Shown in pieces: positions 5,511-46,153 of a stretch of 64,000 bases of DNA (its first letter is position 1; every line of letters starts with the position of its first letter). Position numbers and translations under genes: made by a program. Source of the stretch: an uncultured delta proteobacterium (GTDB lineage: Bacteria; Myxococcota_A; Polyangia; Polyangiales; Houyiibacteriaceae); the NCBI GenBank assembly GCA_963792825.1, contig CAWBXS010000001.1:130913-194912 (forward strand), written 5' to 3'. The notes under the pieces are model-generated. The model saw nothing but the letters and a program-made list of their open reading frames with translations, was not told the DNA's origin and ran no database searches.

Positions 5511-6239
5511 ATGATGCGCGTGTGGACCACCTGTGCCGCCGCCATGCTGCTCTTCGGTTGCCAGAGCGGAGAGGAGCCGGTTCGAGGGGCGCACCGAGGC
5601 ATCGAGCCAACCTCCGTGTATACGCCCCGTCCGCAGCCCTCGAAGGCGCCTGCGGAGTTGCCAACGCCCGTCGAGCGCGGGCCGCAGCGCATCGTCATTG
5701 GCACGAAAGAGGAAGAGCCGAAGCGCGACCTCGGTGCCGAGCTTCGATCGGCGGTGGGCACGCCAATCGACTGCGTCAGGGATTTCGTCGCCCCCGCCCC
5801 GACGACGATTCGAGTCAGCGTCACCGGGACCGTACGCCCGACAGGAATGATCATCGACCCCTCCGCCCATGGGTCGGGTTTGTCTGAGGCCGCTCGCCAG
5901 TGCATCGAGCAGCGCGTCGGCCGGGTCGCGTTGAAGCCATTGGACGAATCAGTGTCGCAGAGGGCCGCTACCATCATCGAGATCAACTACGAGCCCGAGC
6001 GCATCGTCGAGGCCGATCCGCGGACGCCCGAGCCTCGGCTCACGGACGTCTTGCAACCGCTGCCCAAGCGACCGACGCTCCCACCGTCGGGAACGCGGAT
6101 CGACGATCCGTTTCGAGGATGGCTCGAAGGTGGCGACGTGAAGCACATCGAAGGCCCGAAGCCGAGAAAGGTCACCGGCCCGAAGCCCCGACCCATCGAG
6201 GGCTACGAAGTCGATGAGAACGCGCAGGTCTGGCGTTAG
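5511..6239 (+). CDS. Hypothetical lipoprotein
   Basis: Lipobox MLLFGCQSG. The mature part is Pro-rich and charged. I recognised no family. Confidence 0.65.
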   Translation: MMRVWTTCAAAMLLFGCQSGEEPVRGAHRGIEPTSVYTPRPQPSKAPAELPTPVERGPQRIVIGTKEEEPKRDLGAELRSAVGTPIDCVRDFVAPAPTTIRVSVTGTVRPTGMIIDPSAHGSGLSEAARQCIEQRVGRVALKPLDESVSQRAATIIEINYEPERIVEADPRTPEPRLTDVLQPLPKRPTLPPSGTRIDDPFRGWLEGGDVKHIEGPKPRKVTGPKPRPIEGYEVDENAQVWR

Positions 6240-6248
6240 CAGGGCCTC

Positions 6249-9200
6249 CTAACCGGGCCGCCGCCGTTCGGCGAACCACTTTCGATACTGCTGCATCAGG
6301 GATTGTTGGTCGGCCGGAGCCCGTCTCACGCAGGTGGCGCGCTCCTCCGAGCGCTCCGGCGCGCCCCAGCGAACCTCCACGCAGTCGTTCGGGTTATAGG
6401 CCATCTCCAGCGCCTTCATGCGTGTGATCAGGTCGGCGAGTGACAAAGACCAGGTGCTTCCGTCCGAACGCGTGTACTCGAAGGTACGCTTGTCGAGCTC
6501 CGCCTGAAGCACGCCCCGCACCTCCTCGCGGGCGGTCTCCCGATCTGCGGCGCGGATCCCAAACCGCTCCGGCTGCGCCGCGACCGCGTCGGGGAACGAG
6601 ACGACGGCGTCGATGCTGATCAGCAGGCGCATGTCGCGTGACGGCGTGGAATAGTCCTCCCAAGGGCCCGTCGTCAGAAACAGCGCTGAGCCGTGTGGCA
6701 TGTCGATGGATGGATGACCCTGGGCCTTCATGAAGTCTTCGCCGTTTTGGACCGAGCTCAGGCGCCGTTGCACCGATTCCTCGAGAGCGTCGACCAAGCT
6801 GGTTTGCATACGAACCGGGTCGAGCGGACGCGGATTGATCAGGCCCTCGATGGCTGCGTAGAAGTCGTCGGCGGTGCCGCGATATTGAGCATCGGACCAT
6901 GCGCGAGCTCCGCCCGTCTTGCGGAGCTCCTCGTTCATGGCGATCGTCCACGCCCCCGAATCGAATCGAACGGGACGCCACCCCTTGAAGCCAGCGCCGA
7001 CGAGGTCGGTCTTCGGTGTGAACAAGAACGAACCACGCCAGAATCGCCGCCTGCCTACCGTGCCGTCGGGCTGAGCGTCCGCCCCGAAGAGCACGCCGTA
7101 TTCGTCGACGCCCTGCGGTTTCCAACGTGCAACGACCAGTACGTGCCCGTACGGGTCCGCGAATACCGTTCCGGGACGAATCGCTCGGCGGCTCATGCGT
7201 AGCGGGTAAAGGTCCGTTTGGTCGTCACCAGGCAGTGTGCGCGGGCTTGAGGAATGCACCGCTCCCGCCATCGTGCGCACGAACCTGCGGAACGCATCGA
7301 CGTGGTCTGCATCCGGGACTGGGTCGAGCTCACTGAGCAGATCGGGTTCGCAGCGCGGTGCTGCGTCTTTGCGACCTCGGGTGCACATCCGATAGACGAA
7401 GGGCAATCGAAGCTTCCACGCGAAATACGCTCGTAGAAAGTAGGGAAGGTCGGCGCAGTCCGGTTCGAGATCGAGCCGCGCATCCTCCCCCGCGATGCGA
7501 TGGTCGTAGAGCAGGTTCCGCTCCGGATCCGAGATCAAGGCCTGCAGGCGCGGCCAAGTGACGTCCTCTCCGATCGGCTCCCGAAACAGCTGCTCGACGA
7601 AGGCGGAGTAGAGGTTCTCGGTGTCGCGGCCCCAGCTCGAGCTCGCGTTCCAGGCCGGGCCCGGTGCCGCGCGCGGCGATGGCCTCGACGGTCGAGCTGC
7701 GACGGCGATGTGCTTGCACGCGTGCATGAGCTCCCCGTCGGCGAACACGGCCGTCCACCTGCCGGCCTCGGGCGCGGGGACCTCTACCCATCGGCTCGCC
7801 GGAGGACCGTCGAGCACGTGCTGCTCGGGTGTTCGCAGCGATCCATCCGGTGCAAACAGCACGAGCGATCCGAGACCTGGGTCACGCTCGGCGGTTGCAA
7901 TCACGCGCAGCGGGCGTGAGGAGTCTGGTCGATGCGGCGATTGGAAGAGCGCCGTGCCTTTGGTGTCGCTGCACCGGCCTCTTGGAAAGGAGATCGGTGC
8001 GACCGGACGCAGCTCTGCATCGGCGACGAGGGCGGGCCCTGGCGTTCGACCGAGCACGGCGATGCGCGTGATTCGGCTCAAGAAGTCTCGTCGCGAGCTT
8101 CCTGCGCCCAACGACAGATCGCTCACCACCACCCGATCGACGCGATTGATCGTCTCGAGCTCGGAGCCCTCGCACGGCGTCACGAATTCCGAGAACGCGT
8201 GGATCGCCATCGGCTCGCCTTTCTCGGTCGTGCCGAGGTAGAGCATGATGTGGCCCGGGAAGTAGAGCAGGACCACCCCGCGATGCGCTGCCGCCTCGAT
8301 CAAGAGCCGCTTCTCGTTCGGATCTTGGAGCGTGGACACGTCGACGGCGAAGGTTCCGGCCATGGCCTGCCGCGCGCTGTGCCGCGGCAGATCGATCCCG
8401 AAGGGCTCGAAGAGGTCGAGCAAGAATCGCGAGCAGTCGTAGCCCCCGTCTTTGCCGCCCCAGCCGTACGGCCTACCGAGCATCGAGAACGCTTCGGTGA
8501 GCAACTCACGCCGGGTGAAGGGACGAGGCATGCCTTTTGCGAGATGCGCCTCGAGGGCTTTTCGGGTGAGGGGCGCGGAGAGCGCCTCGGTGGTGACCCA
8601 GCCAAGGGCGTAGGATGTGCGTCCGAGGTACATCCCGTTGGGCCATCGCGCCAAGAGTTGGACGACTTCGCCCTCACGGATCGTGCTGCACCGGTTGCGA
8701 TCGAAGTCCGCGTCGACCGGCGCTTCGAAGAGACCACCCTCGAAGGGGGCGCAGCGCAATGCGGCGAGCCTTTCGACCAGTCGCCATTCGTCGACCTCCT
8801 CGACCGTCGCAGGCGTTTCGAACGGAGCTGCCTCACTCGCAGCGATTGGGTCGCCGTTGCGGTCGACCAACTCGGCTGCCTGCAGCCGCTTGTTCAAGTA
8901 GGCCAAGCGTTCGTCCACCTGCACCTGGAGCGCGTTTCGGTCGACCGGCTCGAGCAGATCCGCTCGGCCAATCGGCTCGTCGTTCACGGGCTTTTGAAGC
9001 GCGAGGCGATGGCGCTGCACCTCGTCTCGGCTCATCAACGGCTCGTCGAGCGGGCCGTATGCCTCGTTGCGGGAGAGCCAGTATTCCAGCGTCTCCTGTT
9101 TTGGGGAGACGTTGGCAAGGGGAGTCTCGACCCGGCGCGTTTCCGGGCACGAGGCGGAACGCTCCGGGCCTCGAGGCGCTGCCCGGTCGTGTTTGCAGGC

Positions 9201-36590: not shown

Positions 36591-37808
36591 ATGAGCGAGA
36601 CTCCCGACGAGCTGAAGCCCAGCCTTCCGTTCTCGCTCGTCAACAGGCTGGACGGCCTGAGCAAGAAGATGATCCCCATCCAGTCGGAGGGGGCCATGAA
36701 GCTCGCGGAGCGAACCACGGGGCTCTCCGATTGGGGTGACGGCGGGTTTCGGGCTCGCCTCGATGCCGCGGTCGACGGGTTGAACGAGGCGAACCTCAAC
36801 ACGACCGGTCTGTTCGGCGCGCGCTACGTGCTGAACTGGCATCTCGGAAACCGCCTTCGCGTCGTCGACTTCGCCAAGCGCCATCCCGAGCTCGACGACG
36901 TCGCGATCGAGCGACCCGTGGTGATCACCGGCTTCTTCCGAACGGGCACCACTTTCCTTCACAACGTCCTAGCCGCCGATCCCAACAACCGGGTGGCCCA
37001 GGCCTGGGAGCTTTCGTATCCGGTCGGTCGTCTGGGTGACCCACTCGGCGACGTTGCGTGGCGGCGTGCGCAGGCGAAGTTCACGTTTGGGTTCAATCAG
37101 GCGGCCATTCCCGACCAGGGTGTCGCACATCACGTCACGGCGGAGTCCTACGAGGAGGACTTCTTCTTGCTCGAGAACGACATGGCCGTGCTGACGTTCT
37201 GGATAGGATTCGCTGCCTACCAGTACGCGATGGCGATGCTCGACTGGGACATGATCGAGCCCTATGAGTTTCACAAGACTCAGCTGAGGATCTTGACCGC
37301 GCAGCGTGCGGCCAAGCGCTGGGTGTTGAAGTGTCCGTGGCACCTGTGGAACCTGGACGCACTGATGGCGGTCTATCCCGATGCGCAGATCATTTTCACA
37401 CATCGCGACATCACGGAGGCGCTCGCGTCCCATTGCAGCCTCTCGGCCCGGATGGCCTCCAAGTTGCGACGAAGCCTCGACGTCAAGGAGCTCGGCGCGT
37501 TCTGGCTCGAGCACACGCGCATCGGCCTCGAGCGAGCCATGGAGTCACGAAAGAAAATACCGGAGTCTCAGCTCTACGACGTCCGGCTCCGTGATCTCAT
37601 GGCAGACCCGATGACCGTGCTGACGGACATCTACGCTTACTTCGACTTGGGGCTCACACCCGAGATCGCCCGGCTTCTCGAGGCTCGCGTCGCCGAGAAA
37701 CCGACCTCTCAGGAGGGAGAGCACGACTATCACATCGAGGACTTCGGGCTCACCGACGAGCAGGTGCGGGAGACGCTTGCCGCCTACAACGACCGCTTCG
37801 GCGTCTAG
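36591..37808 (+). CDS. Sulfotransferase family protein
   Basis: VVITGFFRTGTTFLHNVLA is a PAPS 5'-phosphosulfate-binding loop. WVLKCPWHLWNLDAL and FTHRD are also present. 405 aa. Confidence 0.8.
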   Translation: MSETPDELKPSLPFSLVNRLDGLSKKMIPIQSEGAMKLAERTTGLSDWGDGGFRARLDAAVDGLNEANLNTTGLFGARYVLNWHLGNRLRVVDFAKRHPELDDVAIERPVVITGFFRTGTTFLHNVLAADPNNRVAQAWELSYPVGRLGDPLGDVAWRRAQAKFTFGFNQAAIPDQGVAHHVTAESYEEDFFLLENDMAVLTFWIGFAAYQYAMAMLDWDMIEPYEFHKTQLRILTAQRAAKRWVLKCPWHLWNLDALMAVYPDAQIIFTHRDITEALASHCSLSARMASKLRRSLDVKELGAFWLEHTRIGLERAMESRKKIPESQLYDVRLRDLMADPMTVLTDIYAYFDLGLTPEIARLLEARVAEKPTSQEGEHDYHIEDFGLTDEQVRETLAAYNDRFGV

Positions 37809-37896
37809 CGCGGCGTCCGAGAGTCTCGGGCTGGGCCGTCAGGCGAAGCTCGAGATTCGGCTGACCCATTCGGCCAGCTTCGAGTAGAAGAGCAGG

Positions 37897-39378
37897 GTGA
37901 GCGAGCATCGGGAGACGTTCGACGCGGTCGTGGTGGGCTCGGGGCCCAACGGCTTGAGCGCGGCCGTCGCGTTGGCGCAGGGTGGGGCGTCGGTCCTGGT
38001 GCTCGAAGCTGCGGATCAAATCGGTGGCGGGACACGAACGGCGGAGCTCACCCTGCCGGGCTTTCATCACGACGTCTGCTCGGCGGTGCATACGACCGGC
38101 ATCCTCTCGCCCTTCCTTCGGTCACTGCCACTCGAGGAGCACGGCCTTCGATGGATCCTGCCGAACGCCTCGGTCGCTCATCCGCTCGACGATCAACCTG
38201 CGGTCATGATGTGGAGGTCCGTCGAGGAGACATGTGCCGGACTTGGTGCCGACGCGAGCAGTTACCGTTCGCTCGTCGAGCCCTTCCTCGACGACACGGA
38301 AGGCTTTTTCAGCGATGTGCTCGGGCCGCTTGGTTGGCCGAGTCACCCTGCCACCTTCGTTCGTTTTGGTCTCAGGGCGATGTGGCCCGCCACCGCTTTC
38401 GCGAAATGGAATTTTCAGCAGACGCGCGCCAAAGCGCTCTTCGCGGGATGCGCGGCGCACAGCATCTTGCCGCTGGACAAACTCTTCACCGCGGCCCTGG
38501 GCGTCATCTTCTCGATTGCCGGACACGCCGAGCCGTGGCCCGTGGCCGCGGGAGGCTCCCAAGCGATCCCCCGTGCCCTAGGAAGCCTGTTGACCGCGCT
38601 CGGGGGCAAGTGCCGCACCGGCGTGCGCGTGACCTCTGCCGCGGATCTACCCGCTGCCCGAGTCTATCTTTTCGACACGAGCCCCGATCAGCTCGCTTCG
38701 ATCGCCCGGTCCGTGTTACCGCGCGGTTACCTGCGGCGCCTCGGCCGCTATCGGTACGGACCTGGCGCGTTCAAGCTCGACTGGGCGCTCGATGGGCCGA
38801 TTCCATGGCGCGACCCCAACTGCCTCGCAGCATCGACGGTGCACCTCGGTGGAACGCTCGAGGAGATCGCGGCAGGTGAAGCGGCGATGTTTCACGGCAA
38901 GCCCTCTGAGCGCCCGTACGTCCTGCTCTGTCAGCAAAGCCAGCTCGACCCGAGCCGCGCGCCCGCTGGGAAGCAAACGGGCTACGCCTACTGCCACGTT
39001 CCGGGCGGCTCGCCGGTGGACATGACCGAAGCGATCGAGAACCAGGTCGAGCGTTTCGCTCCCGGGTTCAAGGATCGGATCCTCGCCCGGCACACCATGA
39101 ACACGGGGGACTTCTACCGCTACAACCCGAACTACGTCGGAGGCGCGATCACGGGCGGCGCCGCCGACGTGTTCCAACTCTTCACGCGGCCGGTCGCACG
39201 GCTCGACCCGTACACCACTCCGAATCCGAGGGTCTTCATCTGCTCGGCCTCGACGCCACCCGGGGGCGGTGTGCACGGCATGTGCGGATATCATGCGGCG
39301 CAAAGCGCCCTAAGGCGCATCGAACGCTTCGAGCCGGCTCCATTGGTCGGTGCGCGTCCTCAACCCGTAAACCAGTAA
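37897..39378 (+). CDS. Phytoene-desaturase (CrtI)-family NAD(P)/FAD-dependent oxidoreductase
   Basis: FDAVVVGSGPNGLSAAVALAQGGASVLVLEA (dinucleotide-binding fold). The size and C-terminal GGGVHGMCG are typical of the family. Confidence 0.8.
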   Translation: MSEHRETFDAVVVGSGPNGLSAAVALAQGGASVLVLEAADQIGGGTRTAELTLPGFHHDVCSAVHTTGILSPFLRSLPLEEHGLRWILPNASVAHPLDDQPAVMMWRSVEETCAGLGADASSYRSLVEPFLDDTEGFFSDVLGPLGWPSHPATFVRFGLRAMWPATAFAKWNFQQTRAKALFAGCAAHSILPLDKLFTAALGVIFSIAGHAEPWPVAAGGSQAIPRALGSLLTALGGKCRTGVRVTSAADLPAARVYLFDTSPDQLASIARSVLPRGYLRRLGRYRYGPGAFKLDWALDGPIPWRDPNCLAASTVHLGGTLEEIAAGEAAMFHGKPSERPYVLLCQQSQLDPSRAPAGKQTGYAYCHVPGGSPVDMTEAIENQVERFAPGFKDRILARHTMNTGDFYRYNPNYVGGAITGGAADVFQLFTRPVARLDPYTTPNPRVFICSASTPPGGGVHGMCGYHAAQSALRRIERFEPAPLVGARPQPVNQ

Positions 39379-39731
39379 GCCCAGCCGATGAATAGGAGCT
39401 GAAAGGGAAGGCGTAGCCAGAGCGCCCAGCGCGGAATCGGTTTCCTCGGGTCGAGCGAGATGTTCTCCGTCAACATGTAGACGTTGGCTGGGAAGACCGC
39501 CACGTAGAGGGCGATGAGACCCCATGCAGCCCAGGCTCGCGTTGCCGGGACGAGAAGCCCGATACCGCCGAGGATCTCGAAGAAGCCACTCACGTACACG
39601 AGCGTGAGAGGCGCCGGAAGGTACTTCGGGACGATGCGAACGAACGGCTTCGGCCTCACGAAATGAAGGGTGCCAATCGCTATCATCGCGAGCGCGAGCA
39701 ACCAGAGCGCGGCGAGCTTGAGGGTGGTCAT
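39360..39731 (-). CDS. DoxX-like small membrane protein
   Basis: 123 aa with 4 TM segments, including GFFEILGGIGLLVP as in the DoxX family. Confidence 0.55.
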   Translation of the reverse strand: MTTLKLAALWLLALAMIAIGTLHFVRPKPFVRIVPKYLPAPLTLVYVSGFFEILGGIGLLVPATRAWAAWGLIALYVAVFPANVYMLTENISLDPRKPIPRWALWLRLPFQLLFIGWAYWFTG

Positions 39732-39762
39732 GGCAGAAACTAGTTAGAGCGAGCGATTCGAC

Positions 39763-40281
39763 CTACGAGGCGGCAGGCTTTTGTGTGCCTTTGCGTTTGC
39801 CGAACAGGCGGCGAACCTTGACGCCCGCCACGAGGAAGAAAACCAGCAACAAAATCAAGATCACCATGTTGACCCAGGGGACGTACACGTAGTCCGGCTC
39901 GACCTGTTTCAGCGAGAGAACGTTGGGATACGAGTCGAGAATCGCGACGCGCACGCCGTAGTACTTCAGTAGTGCGGTTTCGTCTCGTTCGCTCTTTGCA
40001 AGCTTCGATGCCTCGGCCGCGATGTCTCCGGAGTTCCACTTGAAGTACCAGCCGTTGTCCTCGTTGCGGAACGCCAGCGCCTTTTTTGAGTCCACCTCCT
40101 CGGCGTAGACGAATCGGACATCGCGCGTCTTGTCCTCGCCGGTTTTGGCATCCTTCTGATCCATCCGCTTGACCTCGGTTCCGGTGATCAGAACCTTCGT
40201 CGCCCGCGGCATGAAGTAGTAGAGCGTGCCCGCGAAGAGCAGGGTCACCAGTAACGCAAGTGCTACACCGAGTTTTCGCAT
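39763..40281 (-). CDS. DUF1523-like membrane-anchored protein
   Basis: An N-terminal TM, VLITGTEVKRMD...TRDVRFVY...WYFKWNSGD, and a C-terminal TM. The family call is from memory. Confidence 0.5.
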   Translation of the reverse strand: MRKLGVALALLVTLLFAGTLYYFMPRATKVLITGTEVKRMDQKDAKTGEDKTRDVRFVYAEEVDSKKALAFRNEDNGWYFKWNSGDIAAEASKLAKSERDETALLKYYGVRVAILDSYPNVLSLKQVEPDYVYVPWVNMVILILLLVFFLVAGVKVRRLFGKRKGTQKPAAS

Positions 40282-40307
40282 CGCTTCAATCCTCTCCCAA
40301 GCTTACC

Positions 40308-41582
40308 CTAGGCGCCGGTCGCGGCGACCCCGCTTCGCCGGGGTGACAAACGTTGGCTCCAGAGCTCCCGAATTGCCGCTGTCGCCATGGGAATCGCCAG
40401 CTTGGGTTGAAGGAATGCGCGCCATGGCGCCTCACCCATCATGATGTCGGCCCAAGCGAAAAAGAACTCGTCGCCACGCGCATTGGCGACCTTCGCCATC
40501 GAGTCAACCAGCTCCGGGTAGCGGGCCATCAGATGCGATGCCTTCTTCGCGAGCCCGAACTTGTGGCCAAACTCGCCTACCCATTTTCGTTGATAGGCGG
40601 CGAGGAAGTGCTCGTCGAACCGTCCGACTCGAAACGCTTCGGCCAGGATGGCGGCAGCATTCTCCGCACCTTCCATCGCAAATTGAATGCCTTCGCCGGT
40701 CAGTGGGTCGATGTGGCCAGCCGCGTCGCCGATGATGAGCAGGTTGTTCGCGTAGCTCTTTGGAATTCCACCTAGTCGCAGCCACGCGCCCTTCATCGGC
40801 TCGATTCGATAGTCGGGGCCCAAGTGCCGGCGCACGATGGGGTTGCGGGCGAGCAGCCCATTGTGAATGGTCTTCAAGTCTGAGGGAACCGCCAGACCGC
40901 CCGGAATGATGTATGTGCAAAAATTGAGCTCGTCGTTTGGGTGACGGAAGATAGCGGCGTACCCCGGAAGCAGATCGCGCTCCATGTAGCAAATGCCGTC
41001 CGTCTCGAACGAGTGCGTTCCACCCTCGATGAAGGCGCGGCTGCAAATCGCGCCGGGGCCCTCTTTCACGATTCCGAGTGAGCGCGCCAACTTCGAGTGG
41101 GCTCCATCCGCCAAGACCAGCGTTTTGGCTCTGAACTTCCTGCCGCTAGAATGAGCTGTCCAAGTCCCAGGTTCTGCGTCGAACACGACCCTGTCGACTG
41201 CAGTTTCCTCCACGAGCTCGGCGCCAGCAGACTGCGCAGCGCGCACGATGCGTTCGTCTAGGATGATCCGCTTGACCGACATCGGCGTGCCGTGTGGGTT
41301 CTCCGAAGAGTCGCTTAGGCACTCAATCCCCGAGGGGCTCACGAAACCGCCCGAGGTCGTGAACAGGCACTCACTCGCTTTGATCATCGGGTCGAGCACC
41401 CCCATGCGCTCGAGGTGCCGTTGGGCCCTCGGAATCACGGCATCACCGCAGAACTTGTCGCGAGGGAACTTCGCCTTGTCGAGCAGCAAGACTTGGAGGT
41501 CGCGTTTGGCCAGGTACCAAGCACAGGTTGCCCCGGCAGGCCCGGCCCCGACGATGGCAACGTCGTAGAGCGAGTCGCTCAT
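40308..41582 (-). CDS. Geranylgeranyl-reductase-family FAD-dependent oxidoreductase
   Basis: YDVAIVGAGPAGATCAWYLAKRDLQVLLLDKAKFPRDKFCGDAV, and IIGDAAGHIDPLTGEGI. Confidence 0.85.
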   Translation of the reverse strand: MSDSLYDVAIVGAGPAGATCAWYLAKRDLQVLLLDKAKFPRDKFCGDAVIPRAQRHLERMGVLDPMIKASECLFTTSGGFVSPSGIECLSDSSENPHGTPMSVKRIILDERIVRAAQSAGAELVEETAVDRVVFDAEPGTWTAHSSGRKFRAKTLVLADGAHSKLARSLGIVKEGPGAICSRAFIEGGTHSFETDGICYMERDLLPGYAAIFRHPNDELNFCTYIIPGGLAVPSDLKTIHNGLLARNPIVRRHLGPDYRIEPMKGAWLRLGGIPKSYANNLLIIGDAAGHIDPLTGEGIQFAMEGAENAAAILAEAFRVGRFDEHFLAAYQRKWVGEFGHKFGLAKKASHLMARYPELVDSMAKVANARGDEFFFAWADIMMGEAPWRAFLQPKLAIPMATAAIRELWSQRLSPRRSGVAATGA

Positions 41583-41585
41583 CGC

Positions 41586-42821
41586 CTAGCTCTGTATCTC
41601 GAAGGTCATCCCGGCCCGGCGCAGTCGTTCCACGAGTGGCATGCCCATCGCCGAGGCGGGCGTGAGGACACCCCCTTCGCTTCGAAGCTTGGCGTTGTCG
41701 AGCACGAGGCAGAGCGCGGACTCGGAGAGCATGACCGCGGTCGAGCCATAGCCGGGGTCGCGCTGATCTGAGACCATTCCCCGCACCACGTGGCCGTCGC
41801 CGAGAGCGGCGAACCGCGTCTTGAAGAAACCCTTGTCGCGGGCTTCCTGGCTCGGTCCCTCGCCCGGCGAAGGAAGACGCTTTTCGACCAACGGTCGCGT
41901 CAATGGAAACGCGAGCGACCCCATGAATGCGACGATCCCGCCGACGAACACGGCCGCTCTCGACCAGCCCTTGGGGCCCTTGCCAGTGCTCATCACCTCG
42001 GAGTAACGGAAGTCCTGTCCCCAGGGAAGGCCCATGAGCGCGTGGCTCCGTCGTACGATGCGGGTGTTGATCGCGGCCATGAGGAAAGGCGCCGTCCACA
42101 TATCGAAGTCCTTATCGAAGCGGATTCCAGTTTGGTCTCCTTTGTCCGGCCCTCGCACGCCTTTCGGATTGAGTGCGTAAGGGTTGCCGAGCACCTTCCT
42201 CAGGCTCGGGTCCTCTTTCATCTCGTCCAAGATGTTGAGCATGCTCGCGAACGTGCCGCCGCTGAAGGAGCCGCTCATCTCGCCGGCTGCCATCTTGACC
42301 TCCGATGCGTACTTGCCGTGCCGCTGCTTGAACGCCTCTTGAACCATCAAGGTGCCAAGGTCGGAGGGAATCGAGTCGTAGCCGCAGCAGTGCACGATAC
42401 GTGCGCCGGTCCGATTTGCCTCCTCCTGGTGGGCGTCGATCATGGCCCGCACGAATTGGGTTTCGCCGGTCAGGTCGCAGTAGTCGGTTCCGTTGCGCGC
42501 GCAGGCCGCGACGAGCTCAGCGCCATATTTTGCATACGGGCCGACCGTGCTGATGACCACCTCGGCCTTCCGCGCAATCGCATCGAGCGAATCTGCGTCG
42601 AAGCTGTCGCCGATCAGGACAGGAAGATTCGAAGCGCCAATCTCGCCCGCAATTTCTTGGAGCTTTTGTTTGTTGCGTCCGGCGAGTGCGAGCCGAAGCC
42701 CGGTTTCGCCGCCGAGGTAGTTGCGGACGAGGTACTCGCCGACGAGGCGCCCGGTGAAACCGGTGGCGCCCCATAGAACGATGTCGAATTCGCGAGAACG
42801 GTCGCGGGTGCGGGTCGTCAT
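41586..42821 (-). CDS. Saccharopine-dehydrogenase-like NAD(P) oxidoreductase (trans-acting enoyl-reductase-like)
   Basis: Trimmed to ATG 42821. FDIVLWGATGFTGRLVGEYL (Rossmann fold). Its stop lies 3 nt upstream of the start of the geranylgeranyl-reductase-like gene. Confidence 0.8.
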   Translation of the reverse strand: MTTRTRDRSREFDIVLWGATGFTGRLVGEYLVRNYLGGETGLRLALAGRNKQKLQEIAGEIGASNLPVLIGDSFDADSLDAIARKAEVVISTVGPYAKYGAELVAACARNGTDYCDLTGETQFVRAMIDAHQEEANRTGARIVHCCGYDSIPSDLGTLMVQEAFKQRHGKYASEVKMAAGEMSGSFSGGTFASMLNILDEMKEDPSLRKVLGNPYALNPKGVRGPDKGDQTGIRFDKDFDMWTAPFLMAAINTRIVRRSHALMGLPWGQDFRYSEVMSTGKGPKGWSRAAVFVGGIVAFMGSLAFPLTRPLVEKRLPSPGEGPSQEARDKGFFKTRFAALGDGHVVRGMVSDQRDPGYGSTAVMLSESALCLVLDNAKLRSEGGVLTPASAMGMPLVERLRRAGMTFEIQS

Positions 42822-42971
42822 GGGGAGGTCATACGGCAGGCCGCTTCCGGAGGCCACCCCGGACTTCGGCGAAAAGCTCGAGTGAGCCGTTCTCGCCTTT
42901 TCTAGGAGCGCCAAACGTTCGAAGGCCGGCCGGAAGCAGAGCGACCTCGCCGTGCTAGTCTGTGACCCGAA

Positions 42972-43739
42972 ATGCCCGCAGTGCGCGAGACGAATCAGCA
43001 GGGAAGGCCGCTTTCGATTGCAGCCGCGGCTCTCGCAATGATTGTCGGGTGCGCCTCGGGACCCGTGGCGGAGCCAGCGCCCGAGCGATCGCCCGACGCG
43101 CTGGCCACGGCGCTCACGCCTCAGCAGTCGCCCGAATACTACGTCGATCAGGCGAACCGATACTTCGATACGCTCGACACGAGCGCCGACCCGAACAGCG
43201 TGCCGAGCTACTCACCGCTCGTCGCAAGGTGGGAGCTGCCGCCATGGCTCTGGCTGACGGGATATGGCCGTGAGAACATGATCCTCACCACAAACCTCGC
43301 CGTCGAGCTCGATCCCTCGACCGTGCCCACACGCGACTGCCGCGCCTTCGCCGTCCAGCCCTTTGCGCGCTGTTACGTGACGTTCGAGTACGAGGCCGGC
43401 TCGTGTCCAATCTACGAAGAGTTCGTCTTCAACGATCAGGGCGAGATGACTTTCATCGAGGCCTGGTCGGACCAGCCAGGGCTCCTGCCGATGCCCGATC
43501 CAGCGGATCGGTGGGCCCAGGGTGAAGACGTCCGCCGCCTCGCCACCAAGGTTCCCGGTCTCGGAAACGAAACCGGTCTCATCGATCTCGATTCCGATGC
43601 CATGGAGGTCGCCGCAAGGGAGGACCCCGAGGTCGCCGACTTCGTCCGCCGCGCCAAGGATTTCTGGCCGGCTTGGCTCGAGGCGAATCAAGAGGCGGGC
43701 CCGGACTACTTCGCGCGCGGCTGCGGATGGACGGAGTGA
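42972..43739 (+). CDS. Hypothetical lipoprotein
   Basis: Lipobox LAMIVGCASG. The mature domain is acidic with several Cys and Trp. No family recognised. Confidence 0.6.
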   Translation: MPAVRETNQQGRPLSIAAAALAMIVGCASGPVAEPAPERSPDALATALTPQQSPEYYVDQANRYFDTLDTSADPNSVPSYSPLVARWELPPWLWLTGYGRENMILTTNLAVELDPSTVPTRDCRAFAVQPFARCYVTFEYEAGSCPIYEEFVFNDQGEMTFIEAWSDQPGLLPMPDPADRWAQGEDVRRLATKVPGLGNETGLIDLDSDAMEVAAREDPEVADFVRRAKDFWPAWLEANQEAGPDYFARGCGWTE

Positions 43740-43813
43740 GCCCCCGTCCAACTTGATCTCTCTGGCCCTCGTCGATTGATGTTATACGGCAGAACCCACC
43801 CCGAGGAGATGAG

Positions 43814-44308
43814 ATGGCTGCTTCCAGAAACGGTCTTCCACTGAGCCTGCGGAAGAAGGACATCTTTTTCGTCGTTTGTTTTTCGTTCTTCGCGTTCTCG
43901 TCGTTCTTTTCCGATTCCTGGCATGCGCTCGGCCTCCTCGACGGCGATGCCTTTTGGTCACGCGCGAACCGGTGGTACGGCGAAATCGCCCAGGATTACT
44001 TCTTCCTGGCGGACCACCCGTACGTCCGGGTCAACACCGGCATTTCTGGAATGGTGTACGGACCCTTTTATCTCCTGCTGGTCTATTCCTTCATCAAGGG
44101 GAAGAACTGGATTCGCCCTTGGGCGCTGGTCTACGTCGGCGCGATGTTGCATGGCTGCACCGAGTTTCTGATCTACGAATATTGGATCGGACCCCCGCCC
44201 GGTAACGCGCTCCTCTTTTGGGCGTTCAACGGCCCCTACTGGGTGGTCCCGTTTCTGCTCGGCATCCGCATGTGGAAGCCCGACCCGTTCGGCTCGTCAG
44301 TTGTCTGA
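43814..44308 (+). CDS. TMEM97/sigma-2-receptor-like (EXPERA domain) 4-TM membrane protein
   Basis: 164 aa with four TM segments. YGPFYLLLVYSFIKGKNWIRPWALVYVGAMLHG and NGPYWVVPFLLGIRMW parallel the TMEM97/EBP-type pattern as I recall it (...FLKG..WIR...; ...YAPYLLIPF...). The local sequence is visibly more A/T-rich than its surroundings. Confidence 0.6.
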   Translation: MAASRNGLPLSLRKKDIFFVVCFSFFAFSSFFSDSWHALGLLDGDAFWSRANRWYGEIAQDYFFLADHPYVRVNTGISGMVYGPFYLLLVYSFIKGKNWIRPWALVYVGAMLHGCTEFLIYEYWIGPPPGNALLFWAFNGPYWVVPFLLGIRMWKPDPFGSSVV

Positions 44309-46153
44309 CGCGTTGCGCGGGCGGGGTTTTCGCGGTGTGCCCCGTAAGTCCTCGTAACTACTGCGCGTAGGGAGGGGGAGCGTGTCCCGTTTGAGCTTGA
44401 GGGTGGGGGTGTAGGAGGCGCTCGGGAATCCGCCTTCCACGATGTGCCACGCGGCTATGCGCTCGGCATGCGACACCTCGTCGTTGTACGAATCGACCAG
44501 TCGTTGGATTTCGGCGGCGATTGCAGGGTGTCTTTCCACCGGCGCGGATCGCGCTGCTTCGCGTGCATCAAGCCATGCTGCCGCCTCTTCAGCGTCGAGC
44601 GAGATGAGCACGGCGGCATGTGGCCGCCCTTCGCCGAATGCCATCGCGTCGGAAATCAGGGGGCTTGCTCTCAGCCGGTTCTCGATCCGTTGCGGCGAGA
44701 TGTTCTTGCCGGACGTGAGAACGAAATAGTCCTTTTTCCGATCGAGAATACGGAGGCGTCCATCGGAGGTGAGCTCCCCGATATCCCCGGTATGCAGCCA
44801 GCCTTCGCCGTCGAGAACCTTTGCGGTCTCGTCGGGCTTCCGCCAGTAACCCGCAAACACGCAGTCACCGCGCAGCAGTATCTCGCCGTCCTCCGCAATC
44901 GTGATCTCGACGTCGTCGTGCGGAGCTCCGACGAGCCCAGCTTCGAGGTCGCCGGGGCCTTGGGAGGCACCTGCACCGCACGTCTCCGTCATCCCCCAGG
45001 CCTGGCGGAGCGGGATCCCGATCGCCTGAAAGAAATACTGCACCTCGACCGGCAGCGCCGCCGCGCCAGAGCTGGCGGACCACAAGCGCTCGAACCCCAT
45101 ACGTTTCTTGATCGGTGGGCCGAGGATCTCGCTCGACAACCATGCCTCTAGTCTCTCGGCGATGCTCACCTGCTGTCCTTCGCGGCGCCGACGGACGATT
45201 CCGGCGGCCGCTTCGATGGCTCCCCCGATCCAACGCTCGGGCTTCGGAGCGGCCTCGAGCTCAGCCAGGATGCGTGCCCGAGTCTTCATCCAGAACTGCG
45301 GCGGACCGAGCAGCGCCGTCGGACGGGCCAGCCGAAATGCTTCGGGAAGCAGCGCAAGATCGGGGACGAACCAGATCTCGCCCGATGGAGCCCCTCGGAC
45401 CATCGGGATCAGCGAGATCATGATTCGTCCCGTGATGTGGCTGAGCGGACTGTAGCTGACGAGGGTCTGATGCCCCTTGGGCCGGAGCCGCGTCACGAAC
45501 CGCGTCGCCGCAAACAGCGCGTTGCGATGTGTGAGCGCGACGCCTTTGGGTGGACCCGTCGTTCCCGACGTGTAGACGATCGTGAACACATCCGAATCAC
45601 GGATCATGTCGAGCCGAGCGGCGACGGCCTGGCTATCGGTTTTGAGGAATTGGGCTCCACGGCGGCGGAGCTCGGTCAGAGGCACGATCCGGCCGTAGGC
45701 GACTTTCCGGCAACTGACGATGAACGACTCCACATCCGGGAGCCTTAGGGCAAGCAGGCGTTCGAGAGTCCCATCGTCGTCGACGAATACATGGCGGCAG
45801 CCTGCATCGTTGATGCACCGCGCGAACTGGTCATCGGCAAACTCACGAAAGAGCGGAACCACAATTCCAGCGGCGTGCTGGATGGCGTAATCCGCGATCA
45901 GCCATTCGGGGGAGTTTCGGGCGATGATGCCGACCCGGTCGCCCGACTCGAGGCCCATCGCCATCAGACCGGCGGAGGTCTCCTCGGTCAACCGCCGCGC
46001 GTCGGCTCCTGTCGCGCTTTCCCACTCACCTTCCACGGGCCAGCGAAAGACGACCTCGTTTGCAAGCTCCCCGGAGCGTACCAGGAAGTTGTGAATTACA
46101 GTGTCGCGACGAAGCGAGGGAGCCGATCCAGTTGCATCGCGGGGGGGCGACAT
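44297..46153 (-). CDS. Long-chain fatty-acid--CoA ligase (AMP-forming adenylating enzyme)
   Basis: TIVYTSGTTGPPKGV (AMP-binding motif), GWLHTGDIG, RILDRKKDYF. Confidence 0.9.
   Translation of the reverse strand: MSPPRDATGSAPSLRRDTVIHNFLVRSGELANEVVFRWPVEGEWESATGADARRLTEETSAGLMAMGLESGDRVGIIARNSPEWLIADYAIQHAAGIVVPLFREFADDQFARCINDAGCRHVFVDDDGTLERLLALRLPDVESFIVSCRKVAYGRIVPLTELRRRGAQFLKTDSQAVAARLDMIRDSDVFTIVYTSGTTGPPKGVALTHRNALFAATRFVTRLRPKGHQTLVSYSPLSHITGRIMISLIPMVRGAPSGEIWFVPDLALLPEAFRLARPTALLGPPQFWMKTRARILAELEAAPKPERWIGGAIEAAAGIVRRRREGQQVSIAERLEAWLSSEILGPPIKKRMGFERLWSASSGAAALPVEVQYFFQAIGIPLRQAWGMTETCGAGASQGPGDLEAGLVGAPHDDVEITIAEDGEILLRGDCVFAGYWRKPDETAKVLDGEGWLHTGDIGELTSDGRLRILDRKKDYFVLTSGKNISPQRIENRLRASPLISDAMAFGEGRPHAAVLISLDAEEAAAWLDAREAARSAPVERHPAIAAEIQRLVDSYNDEVSHAERIAAWHIVEGGFPSASYTPTLKLKRDTLPLPTRSSYEDLRGTPRKPRPRNASDN

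Follow-up and report, generated by a model that had tools for sequence, protein, structure and literature searches.

The function of the sigma-2 receptor (TMEM97, MAC30), a target for drugs and imaging, is poorly understood; its pocket is enzyme-like, but isomerase activity has not been detected. This protein of about 176 amino acids with four trans-membrane segments (bovine structures 7M93-7M96 and 7MFI) binds cholesterol, but neither yeast complementation nor in-vitro assays showed it to act as an isomerase (Alon et al., bioRxiv 10.1101/2021.04.29.441652). FF-MAS, on which the delta14-reductase TM7SF2 acts, accumulates in TMEM97 knockout cells, and a contact between TMEM97 and TM7SF2 was not found by co-immunoprecipitation in human cells (PMC13382799). 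A second member of the EXPERA superfamily, EBP, is a 3-beta-hydroxysteroid delta8,delta7-isomerase (6OHT, 8W0R) of about 230 amino acids (222-244 in vertebrates) with an extra N-terminal segment. Mutagenesis has identified E122 and H76 of EBP as essential residues. The origin of EBP has been inferred to lie within eukaryotes by Hoshino & Gaucher (PMC8237579). TM6SF1 and TM6SF2 are eukaryotic double-domain proteins of about 370 amino acids, and TM6SF2 is described as cholesterol-bound (PMC13648352). The ERG2/sigma-1 family (PF04622) has an unrelated, cupin-like beta-barrel fold (Alon et al., bioRxiv 10.1101/2021.04.29.441652) and could be a functional analogue of the protein described here, since in sterol-producing bacteria the C-8 isomerase has been assigned to this family. 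Genes for a C-14 reductase and a C-8 isomerase carry adjacent locus tags in methanotrophs (Lee et al. 2023, Supplementary Data 1). An EXPERA gene also lies in the cyanobacterial sterol cluster, where published analyses have assigned no role to it.

We analysed a window of 64,000 nucleotides from an uncultured delta proteobacterium, in which a gene at 43814..44308 on the forward strand encodes a protein that we call EXPERA-1. The gene starts with ATG, and a Shine-Dalgarno-like GAGGAG (43803..43808, +), read directly in the sequence, lies 5 nt before the start codon. The original prediction described a four-trans-membrane protein of 164 amino acids from the TMEM97/EXPERA family; the open reading frame is exactly as described, and EXPERA-1 is a genuine EXPERA-superfamily protein, related to TMEM97 and EBP. 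It matches profile positions 3-113 of 113 of Pfam PF05241 with an E-value of 4.8e-11 and 43.4 bits, above the gathering cutoff of 25.7, and a whole-genome scan returned the same result; NCBIfam contains no model matching it. A phmmer search of PDB sequences with the single EXPERA-1 sequence gave no match, and the family profile was needed to reach proteins of known structure. This profile recovers sigma-2 as the best match (7m93, E 3.2e-13, full length), both EXPERA domains of TM6SF1 (E 5e-11) and, weakly, EBP (E 5.7e-3, with the match starting at EBP residue 75). Two stretches that the original prediction had likened to conserved motifs of TMEM97 and EBP were both reproduced by HMMER: yGPfYlllvyalvkG.knwirlpaliYvga aligns with a 30-residue stretch of bovine sigma-2, and fnlpYvlvPllllvRm with sigma-2 vYIPYFLIPLILLLFM. 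A BLASTP match to chimpanzee TMEM97 spans this stretch as well, with only 27% identity over half the length of this prokaryotic protein (85 amino acids).

The AlphaFold2 model of EXPERA-1, built from a 47-sequence alignment, has a pLDDT of 91.3 and a pTM of 0.84. It shows four long helices (residues 15-38, 69-95, 100-125 and 132-153), in agreement with the predicted topology, and one short extramembrane helix. In a Foldseek search of the PDB with this model the top 13 matches are all sigma-2 or EBP, each with a probability of 1.00, and the cholesterol-bound sigma-2 structure 7MFI is among the best. TM-scores are 0.63-0.77 for sigma-2 (mostly 0.72-0.77, the best fold match) and 0.68-0.70 for EBP, with which the core fold is shared, and the next match scores 0.22. 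The likeness to the TMEM97 and EBP structures extends to the acidic residues of the ligand site: D34 and D61 are invariant across 47 EXPERA-1 homologues, and both HMMER and MAFFT alignments place D34, in TM1, at sigma-2 D29 and EBP E80, and D61, in the TM1-TM2 loop, at sigma-2 D56 and EBP D108. The first aspartate is absent in the aligned TM6SF1 domain. EXPERA-1 is thus shown to be a four-helix, EXPERA-fold inner-membrane protein with a predicted lipid-facing pocket, in which the invariant D34 and D61 are buried.

Other positions of the predicted pocket, which S78, N139 and Y142 would line, resemble the two eukaryotic proteins to different degrees. The glycine and proline kinks of sigma-2 are kept, and its Y150 corresponds to Y142. 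In contrast, sigma-2 Y147 and L118 are replaced by N139 and E122, both as in EBP, where N193, W196 and E169 correspond to N139, Y142 and E122. The sigma-2 acid E73, which is hydrogen-bonded to D29, is S78 in EXPERA-1. Of the 51 rows of the clade to which EXPERA-1 belongs (clade B), 41 have Ser at this position and 7 have Asp. The essential E122 of EBP is T75 in EXPERA-1 and Thr, Ser or Ala across clade B, and H76 has no clear histidine equivalent: HMMER puts S30 in its place, whereas the MAFFT alignment shifts register there.

Phylogenies built with FastTree and IQ-TREE place EXPERA-1 in the mostly bacterial clade B, and a second EXPERA protein of the same genome (EXPERA-2, contig C2:1722358-1722870) with TMEM97; the split between clades A and B has 75% SH-aLRT support. 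Among the sampled tips of the EXPERA-1 clade, 19 of 20 are metagenomic or bacterial, and named members of its clade come from Myxococcota, Bacteroidota, Actinomycetota, Spirochaetota and Cyanobacteriota. The named eukaryotic sequences in the tree are vertebrates and a few EukProt protists only. All three alternative constraints pass the AU test, and neither a grouping of the EXPERA-1 clade with TMEM97 (p 0.26) nor a sister relation to EBP (p 0.67) is rejected. The narrower claim of a TMEM97 homologue is based on profile score and architecture; the phylogeny does not separate a TMEM97 affinity from an EBP affinity. EXPERA-2 and its clade carry Asp at the E73 position, and EXPERA-2, with its readier grouping with TMEM97, seems to be nearer to TMEM97 proper than EXPERA-1 is.

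The gene had also been described as A/T-rich and possibly foreign. Its G+C content (0.574) is indeed lower than that of its neighbours (0.58-0.66) and of the genome (0.632), but the deficit is confined to codon positions 1 and 2, and GC3 (0.77) is native, neighbours having 0.73-0.83. The low G+C is attributed to the amino-acid composition (10.9% Phe and 47% hydrophobic residues) and gives no sign of foreign origin. The gene is under strong purifying selection, with a dN/dS of 0.03-0.10. A recent eukaryote-to-bacterium transfer, which would make EXPERA-1 a passenger without an integrated role, would fit the low total G+C and the better-known occurrence of the family in eukaryotes. Evidence to the contrary is the native GC3, the presence of the gene in 52 of 54 genomes of the genus and 71 of 87 genomes of the family, orthologues that remain 81-91% identical although synonymous sites are saturated, and the metagenomic or bacterial composition and the phylum range of its clade. 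A foreign or passenger origin is effectively refuted by GC3, genus-wide presence and dN/dS, and we regard it as extremely improbable.

The search of the host genome for further sterol genes, proposed with the original prediction, found several. The genome encodes, away from the window locus, a CYP51 (E 1e-133 to Methylococcus CYP51), and a homologue of the delta14-reductase MaSR1 (4QUV, E 2e-129; contig C2:769773-771023), which is one of four ERG4/24 genes in all. It also contains six KshA_C genes for Rieske sterol-type oxygenases, five FA_hydroxylase genes and the two EXPERA genes. An oxidosqualene cyclase is absent; searches of the host genome found no cyclase, no squalene epoxidase (SE) and no ERG2. 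An ORF of 199 amino acids after the host CYP51 was considered as a candidate 8,14-Bsr, and its single-sequence AlphaFold2 model has a pLDDT of only 38. Across the 54 genomes of the genus, ERG4/24 is found in 51, CYP51 in 53 and a strong cyclase in 20. In the host's family outside this genus, ERG4/24 is present in all 19 EXPERA-positive genomes and in 7 of the 14 EXPERA-negative ones. CYP51, a delta14-reductase and EXPERA are thus kept throughout a genus of Polyangiales with small genomes, whether a cyclase is present or not. This suggests that bacteria salvage or remodel sterols, a process that bears on the interpretation of sterane biomarkers and on predator-prey lipid ecology.

Homologues of EXPERA-1 in other bacteria are found in sterol contexts. 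In Calothrix rhizosoleniae and Rivularia the EXPERA gene lies between Rieske/cupin genes and a Bsr-like reductase inside a sterol operon, in the order SE-OSC, ERG2-like, SdmA-like, EXPERA, GGR/Bsr-like, SdmB-like, CYP51; ERG2-like and EXPERA genes thus occur together. Two Leptospirales genomes have, directly upstream of the EXPERA gene, a gene for an ERG4/24 reductase that shares 52-54% identity with the copy in the host genome; the reductase's neighbour here is thus an EXPERA gene. Among 19 EXPERA-bearing Bacteroidota genomes, 10 encode an OSC-type cyclase and 11 an ERG4/24 reductase. CYP51 is found in none of the 19, and the canonical post-demethylation substrate is therefore absent there. 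When 251 Bacteroidota genomes were sampled evenly, EXPERA was found in three, ERG4/24 in two, both EXPERA-positive, and a strong cyclase in the centre genome only. A cyclase is missing from roughly half of the genomes with EXPERA. An OSC gene lies about 14 kb from the EXPERA gene in G323 only, and a cyclase adjacent to EXPERA in the Chitinophagales genome G315 was a false lead that arose from the numbering of contigs. Recurrent neighbours of EXPERA genes are SDR (21 loci), WS/DGAT acyltransferase (13 Myxococcota loci, in which the two genes are translationally coupled), P450s other than CYP51 (8) and FAD-linked oxidase (7); the recurrent P450 was considered as a CYP51 and is instead CYP97/CYP102/CYP4-like.

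The original prediction of a sterol or isoprenoid-lipid isomerase or binding protein is consistent with these genomic contexts, in operons, beside reductases, and together with cyclase and ERG4/24 in Bacteroidota. The pocket of EXPERA-1 probably takes a sterol or protosterol nucleus, and the protein is probably part of a sterol-tailoring toolkit core to the host genus, together with CYP51, the MaSR1-like delta14-reductase, other ERG4/24 reductases, SdmA/KshA-like Rieske oxygenases and the second EXPERA protein. The reading that we favour, with a probability of roughly 0.42, is that EXPERA-1 is a sterol-nucleus double-bond isomerase of the delta8-to-delta7 kind, which works with ERG4/24 reductases. 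D34 would be the proton donor and acceptor, S78, N139 and Y142 would position the substrate, and the product would be passed to, or the substrate received from, an ERG4/ERG24-type reductase. EXPERA-1 would thereby close the gap that the absence of an ERG2-type or EBP-type isomerase leaves in the host genome. As the host lacks squalene epoxidase and cyclase, it probably acquires its sterols from outside, with eukaryotic prey or detritus as the source.

An isomerase is suggested by the invariant pair aligned to EBP E80/D108 and by the match of N139, Y142 and E122 to EBP residues, where animal TMEM97 has Y at the first position and L at the third. The EXPERA family and fold, the Calothrix/Rivularia operon, the Leptospirales tandem, the co-occurrence in Bacteroidota and in the host's family, the sterol genes of the host genome and the core status of EXPERA, ERG4/24 and CYP51 in a genus that keeps EXPERA-1 under purifying selection point the same way. 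However, the clade lacks acidic or histidine equivalents of EBP E122 and H76, the second pocket acid of sigma-2 is a serine in EXPERA-1, and sigma-2 itself is not an isomerase despite its acidic pair. Those replacements favour a non-catalytic sterol-binding partner, as sigma-2/TMEM97 and TM6SF2 appear to be, which comes close behind in our ranking as a tentative alternative. Here the predicted pocket would bind a sterol intermediate and deliver it to membrane enzymes, either the delta14-type ERG4/24 reductase or the WS/DGAT of relatives, or regulate them, and leave the sterol unchanged. The cholesterol binding of sigma-2 and that described for TM6SF2 agree with this, as does the FF-MAS build-up in TMEM97 knockouts, which parallels the bacterial ERG4/24-EXPERA tandem and co-occurrence, and so does the translational coupling to WS/DGAT. 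An ERG2-type isomerase is also encoded in the Calothrix operon already, which counts against a second one. On the other hand, the family is placed in compact biosynthetic operons and reductase tandems, whose genes usually encode enzymes, EBP-like N139, Y142 and E122 are kept in the clade and lost in animal TMEM97, and no alternative C-8 isomerase candidate was found in the host genome. The negative co-immunoprecipitation result in human cells likewise argues against a partner of the reductase.

Absence of CYP51 from EXPERA-bearing Bacteroidota and of a cyclase from roughly half of EXPERA-bearing genomes, as well as a window locus with no sterol-gene neighbour and no conserved surroundings, further weaken the case for an isomerase. 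Some of the same evidence could be read as a sign that the substrate is another lipid, for example a carotenoid, a polyprenoid or an intermediate of wax esters or ether lipids, and that the sterol association is lineage-specific. The host lacks SE and cyclase, recurrent neighbours are general lipid enzymes (WS/DGAT, SDR, CYP97/CYP102-type P450, FAD-linked oxidase), and those in the window include acyl-CoA ligase, sulfotransferase, CrtI-like and GGR-like flavoenzyme genes. We nevertheless consider this improbable: to our knowledge every characterised EXPERA protein handles sterols, Bacteroidota with EXPERA are very strongly enriched in OSC and ERG4/24, and homologues belong to the cyanobacterial sterol operon. 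Moreover, the cyclase-less host keeps CYP51 and a delta14-sterol reductase homologue, and we know of no non-sterol substrates for these enzymes.

With a large, strongly conserved bacterial sister family in sterol contexts, the function of the pocket can be probed by genetics and heterologous expression. Since the bacterial family accompanies sterol enzymes in several phyla, bacteria may reveal the function of the human family in a simple way. The presence of an EXPERA gene in the cyanobacterial sterol operon also bears on the evolution of sterol synthesis, the origin of EBP having been published as eukaryotic (PMC8237579). A broader and rather speculative view, which we think unlikely, is that TMEM97-like EXPERA is an ancient bacterial part of sterol-nucleus processing around C-14 demethylation and reduction (CYP51, ERG4/24), from which sigma-2 would descend. 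The genus keeps its toolkit as core genes without a cyclase, so exogenous sterol salvage and remodelling would be implied by it. If true, the descent of sigma-2 from a bacterial module would be at odds with the inferred eukaryotic origin of the EBP/EXPERA family, and a partnership with the delta14-reductase step, conserved from bacteria, would underlie the FF-MAS link of TMEM97 in human cells.

The genes on either side of EXPERA-1 are not linked to it in relatives. No sterol genes lie within 7 kb of it, none of six window neighbours was found near an EXPERA gene in 80 related loci, and a same-genus genome (G029) with EXPERA and a cyclase in 37 kb has the EXPERA gene alone in common with the window. 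Pfam assigns the preceding genes to a sulfotransferase (36591-37808, +), a CrtI-like flavoenzyme (37897-39378, +), DoxX (39360-39731, -), DUF1523 (39763-40281, -), a GGR-like FAD protein (40308-41582, -) and a saccharopine-DH-like protein (41586-42914, -), followed by a 255-amino-acid protein with no family match (42972-43739, +). Orthology of the GGR-like gene to Bsr, a C-24 sterol reductase, was considered and rejected, as it is only 24% identical to the Calothrix cluster gene; tblastn of that Bsr-like cluster gene against the host genome found nothing at E <= 1e-5. On the other side, a convergent gene of the long-chain acyl-CoA ligase type (44297..46153, -; Pfam AMP-binding 1.2e-58) overlaps the stop of EXPERA-1 with its 3' end by 12 nt. 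The genes from 36591 to 43739 form a loose block of lipid-type genes 5' of EXPERA-1.

The gene under study, EXPERA-1, is an open reading frame on the plus strand of the window (43814..44308) that starts with ATG and encodes 164 amino acids, exactly as originally predicted, and a GAGGAG ribosome-binding site can be read from the sequence 5 nt upstream of the ATG. Its G+C content (0.574) is lower than that of the genome (0.632) and of its neighbors. The deficit is confined to codon positions 1 and 2, and GC3 (0.77) is level with that of the neighbors (0.73-0.83); the encoded protein has 10.9% Phe and 47% hydrophobic residues. The noted A/T-richness is therefore attributed to Phe-rich membrane composition and gives no sign of the foreign origin that had been proposed as the other explanation. 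Comparison with 13 orthologs gave 81-90% protein identity, synonymous sites near saturation (pS 0.57-0.73) and a dN/dS of 0.03-0.10; EXPERA-1 is a genuine, heavily constrained gene.

The original prediction of a bacterial TMEM97 (sigma-2) homolog in the EXPERA family is borne out by profile and structure comparisons. The Pfam EXPERA model (PF05241) matches EXPERA-1 with 43.4 bits (cutoff 25.7), and a family profile built from 47 homologs matches bovine sigma-2/TMEM97 over its full length (E 3.2e-13) and each of the two EXPERA domains in TM6SF1 (E 5e-11); its match to the sterol delta8,delta7-isomerase EBP is weak (E 5.7e-3). Searches of NCBIfam and single-sequence searches of PDB sequences gave no match. 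Both motif parallels of the original prediction were recovered in HMMER and BLASTP alignments. The AlphaFold2 model computed from the 47-homolog alignment (pLDDT 91.3, pTM 0.84) has four long helices, in agreement with the expected four-TM topology, and superposes on sigma-2 with TM scores mostly of 0.72-0.77 (RMSD about 3 A) and on EBP with 0.68-0.70. The best 13 PDB structure matches are sigma-2 or EBP without exception, and the match ranking after them has a TM score of 0.22. Membership in the EXPERA superfamily is secure; what places the protein in the TMEM97 subfamily is limited to its profile score, its length and its architecture of four TM helices. The family assignment is not new, since databases already name orthologs "EXPERA domain-containing", "emopamil-binding family" or "DUF2781". 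Full-text literature searches found no paper treating bacterial TMEM97-like proteins; bacteria go unmentioned in the EXPERA-defining paper, and EBP was inferred to have arisen within eukaryotes (Hoshino & Gaucher, PMC8237579).

Residues R13, D16, F23, D34, D61, G83, P84, Y86, G96, P146 and R152 are invariant in the alignment of the 47 homologs. These include the anticipated pocket acids: D34 aligns with sigma-2 D29 and EBP E80 and is acidic across every group, and D61 aligns with sigma-2 D56 and EBP D108 and is kept throughout the superfamily. In the predicted EXPERA fold of this strongly constrained protein both aspartates are buried. They correspond to the ligand-site aspartates of sigma-2, whose second pocket acid, E73, is replaced by S78 (EBP T125; Asp in the paralog clade). 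Y142 aligns with sigma-2 Y150 and EBP W196 and is aromatic throughout the groups. N139 and E122 match EBP N193 and E169 and differ from animal TMEM97 (Y147 and L118), whereas the EBP acid E122 is replaced by T75 (sigma-2 L70) and EBP H76 has no clear equivalent. Because the residue map mixes EBP-like and sigma-2-like positions, the pocket reads as a hybrid, and its residues alone mark neither an enzyme nor a receptor.

The host genome (G000) encodes a second paralog outside the window, EXPERA-2 (C2:1722358-1722870; 170 aa, 29% identical to EXPERA-1), which is followed with zero intergenic gap by an SDR gene (pair at C2:1722358-1723671, equal to L001:1333-2646), is preceded by an alpha/beta-hydrolase-like gene and has an Asp where sigma-2 has E73. 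In trees built from 138 and 72 sequences EXPERA-2 clusters with TMEM97 of vertebrates and with protist sequences from EukProt, and EXPERA-1 is placed in a large clade containing every named bacterial locus. The split between the two groups has only 75% SH-aLRT, and AU tests rejected neither the EXPERA-1 clade with TMEM97 (p 0.26) or with EBP (p 0.67) nor the paralog clade with TMEM97 (p 0.60). The EXPERA-1 clade is found almost only in uncultured organisms (19 of 20 sampled tips are metagenomic or from MAGs), with many Polyangiales and Sandaracinaceae-labelled MAGs and further members in Bacteroidota, Actinomycetota, Leptospirales, Treponemataceae, Calothrix/Rivularia and others. Among 301 sampled genomes of the window's order, EXPERA is present in 52/54 genomes of the genus (3-5 Mb, usually 2-3 copies), 71/87 of the family and 9/213 of the rest of the order; an even sample of Bacteroidota has it in 3/251. 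One MAG labelled "uncultured Coxiellaceae" (G330, locus L054) probably represents a Myxococcota genome that is either wrongly labelled or a duplicate, because its cyclase and CYP51 matches are identical in contig numbers, coordinates and scores to those of G199 from the window's genus.

Neighbors of EXPERA-1 in the window encode a sulfotransferase, a CrtI-like flavoenzyme, DoxX, DUF1523, a GGR-like flavoenzyme, a saccharopine-DH-like protein and a 255-aa protein without family, and its stop overlaps the 3' end of a convergent acyl-CoA ligase gene by 12 nt (44297-44308). This block is no evidence for function, since none of these genes accompanies EXPERA at any of 80 related loci or in one same-genus genome. 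Recurrent neighbors elsewhere encode lipid enzymes: a WS/DGAT, whose gene lies upstream of EXPERA in translational coupling with it in 13 Myxococcota loci and whose ortholog is absent from the host genome, SDRs (21 loci), a non-CYP51 P450 (8 loci) and an FAD-linked oxidase (7 loci).

In four phyla, members of the EXPERA-1 clade are associated with sterol enzymes. A homolog with 40% identity lies, in both Calothrix rhizosoleniae and Rivularia, within a co-directional sterol operon ordered as squalene epoxidase-oxidosqualene cyclase fusion, ERG2/sigma-1-like, Rieske/KshA_C, (cupin), EXPERA, GGR/Bsr-like reductase, SdmB-like, CYP51 and Rieske. The ERG2/sigma-1-like and EXPERA genes are at L068:2979-3575 and 6001-6501 in Calothrix and at L069:4378-4974 and 5995-6495 in Rivularia; homologs of both human sigma receptors, which are structurally unrelated families, thus share one operon. 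Lee et al. 2023 gave the role of C-8 isomerase to the ERG2-like gene of the cyanobacterial cluster (matched here by gene order) and left the EXPERA gene without one. In two Leptospirales genomes a sterol reductase of the ERG4/24 family, 52-54% identical to the host copy, is encoded directly upstream of EXPERA. EXPERA-bearing Bacteroidota have an oxidosqualene cyclase-type cyclase in 10/19 genomes, ERG4/24 in 11/19 and CYP51 in 0/19, and in the even sample of 251 a strong cyclase occurs in the centre genome only and ERG4/24 in two genomes, both EXPERA-positive. Among genomes that belong to the window's family but not to its genus, ERG4/24 occurs in 19/19 with EXPERA versus 7/14 without it, and cyclase in 16/19 versus 9/14, counts that are descriptive only because related genomes are not independent.

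The original prediction also looked to the rest of the genome for oxidosqualene cyclase and sterol genes. In the host genome (4.44 Mb, 5 contigs, 99% complete) no squalene epoxidase and no cyclase C- or N-domain were found, and tblastn with three cyclases and the ERG2-like protein gave no match; tailoring genes are present. These comprise a genuine CYP51, which matches Methylococcus CYP51 at E 1e-133 and M. tuberculosis CYP51B1 at E 1e-107, four ERG4/24 genes, one a close homolog of the delta14-sterol reductase MaSR1 (4QUV, E 2e-129), and six KshA_C-type Rieske genes; along with these Rieske genes, five FA_hydroxylase genes and six WS/DGAT paralogs are packed into a 4.4-Mb genome lacking a cyclase. 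The CYP51 gene (C2:371488-372810) belongs to locus L105 outside the window (C2:367503-373415), ordered as a divergent TetR, a P450, an IS/integrase (rve), a KshA_C Rieske, CYP51 and a 199-aa ORF (C2:372816-373415). This ORF matches SnoaL_2/NTF2 weakly (E 3.9e-4) and is a candidate 8,14-sterol reductase of the NTF2 family reported in 2026 (PMC13277303), and CYP51 and NTF2-like genes are adjacent in 20/54 genus genomes. Across the genus CYP51 (53/54) and ERG4/24 (51/54) are as near-universal as EXPERA, and a strong cyclase match occurs in only 20/54, being missing from several near-closed genomes. That tailoring genes are core and the cyclase accessory suggests that the genus remodels exogenous sterols, as proposed for CYP51/8,14-Bsr in sterol-degrading Mycobacteriales (Lee, Giner & Welander 2026, PMC13277303); another source of substrate is possible. 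Cyclase-bearing genomes of the genus have, besides the core CYP51, an extra copy a few kb from the cyclase (e.g. G281:C21, G213:C94, G285:C45, G077:C9, G243:C16, G136:C57), which suggests an accessory cyclase-CYP51 module added onto the core tailoring set.

The substrate of EXPERA-1 is probably a sterol or protosterol nucleus, and a role with non-sterol lipids seems unlikely; given the native-like GC3, a recent foreign passenger gene is highly improbable. We favor, with a probability of roughly 0.4, a double-bond isomerase that would shift a sterol double bond in cooperation with ERG4/24 reductases, because homologs hold enzyme-like places in operons and in tandems, EBP-like N, aromatic and E residues persist in the clade, and the host genome is without an ERG2- or EBP-type isomerase. 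The main rival, which is somewhat less probable, is a non-catalytic sterol-binding partner. It would agree with the report that sigma-2 is not an isomerase (Alon et al., bioRxiv 10.1101/2021.04.29.441652), with equivalents of sigma-2 E73 and of EBP E122 and H76 missing from the clade, and with the ERG2-type gene already in the Calothrix operon. Furthermore, human TMEM97 loss leads to accumulation of FF-MAS, the delta14-reductase substrate (PMC13382799), which mirrors the bacterial reductase-EXPERA pairing.

A DEAD-box/DbpA RNA helicase gene also recurs near EXPERA across phyla: it is convergent, 23-25 bp past the EXPERA gene, in 12 Myxococcota loci (L017-L048), and in five Bacteroidota loci (L086, L089, L091, L092, L094) it precedes EXPERA by 0.8-1.7 kb in the same orientation.
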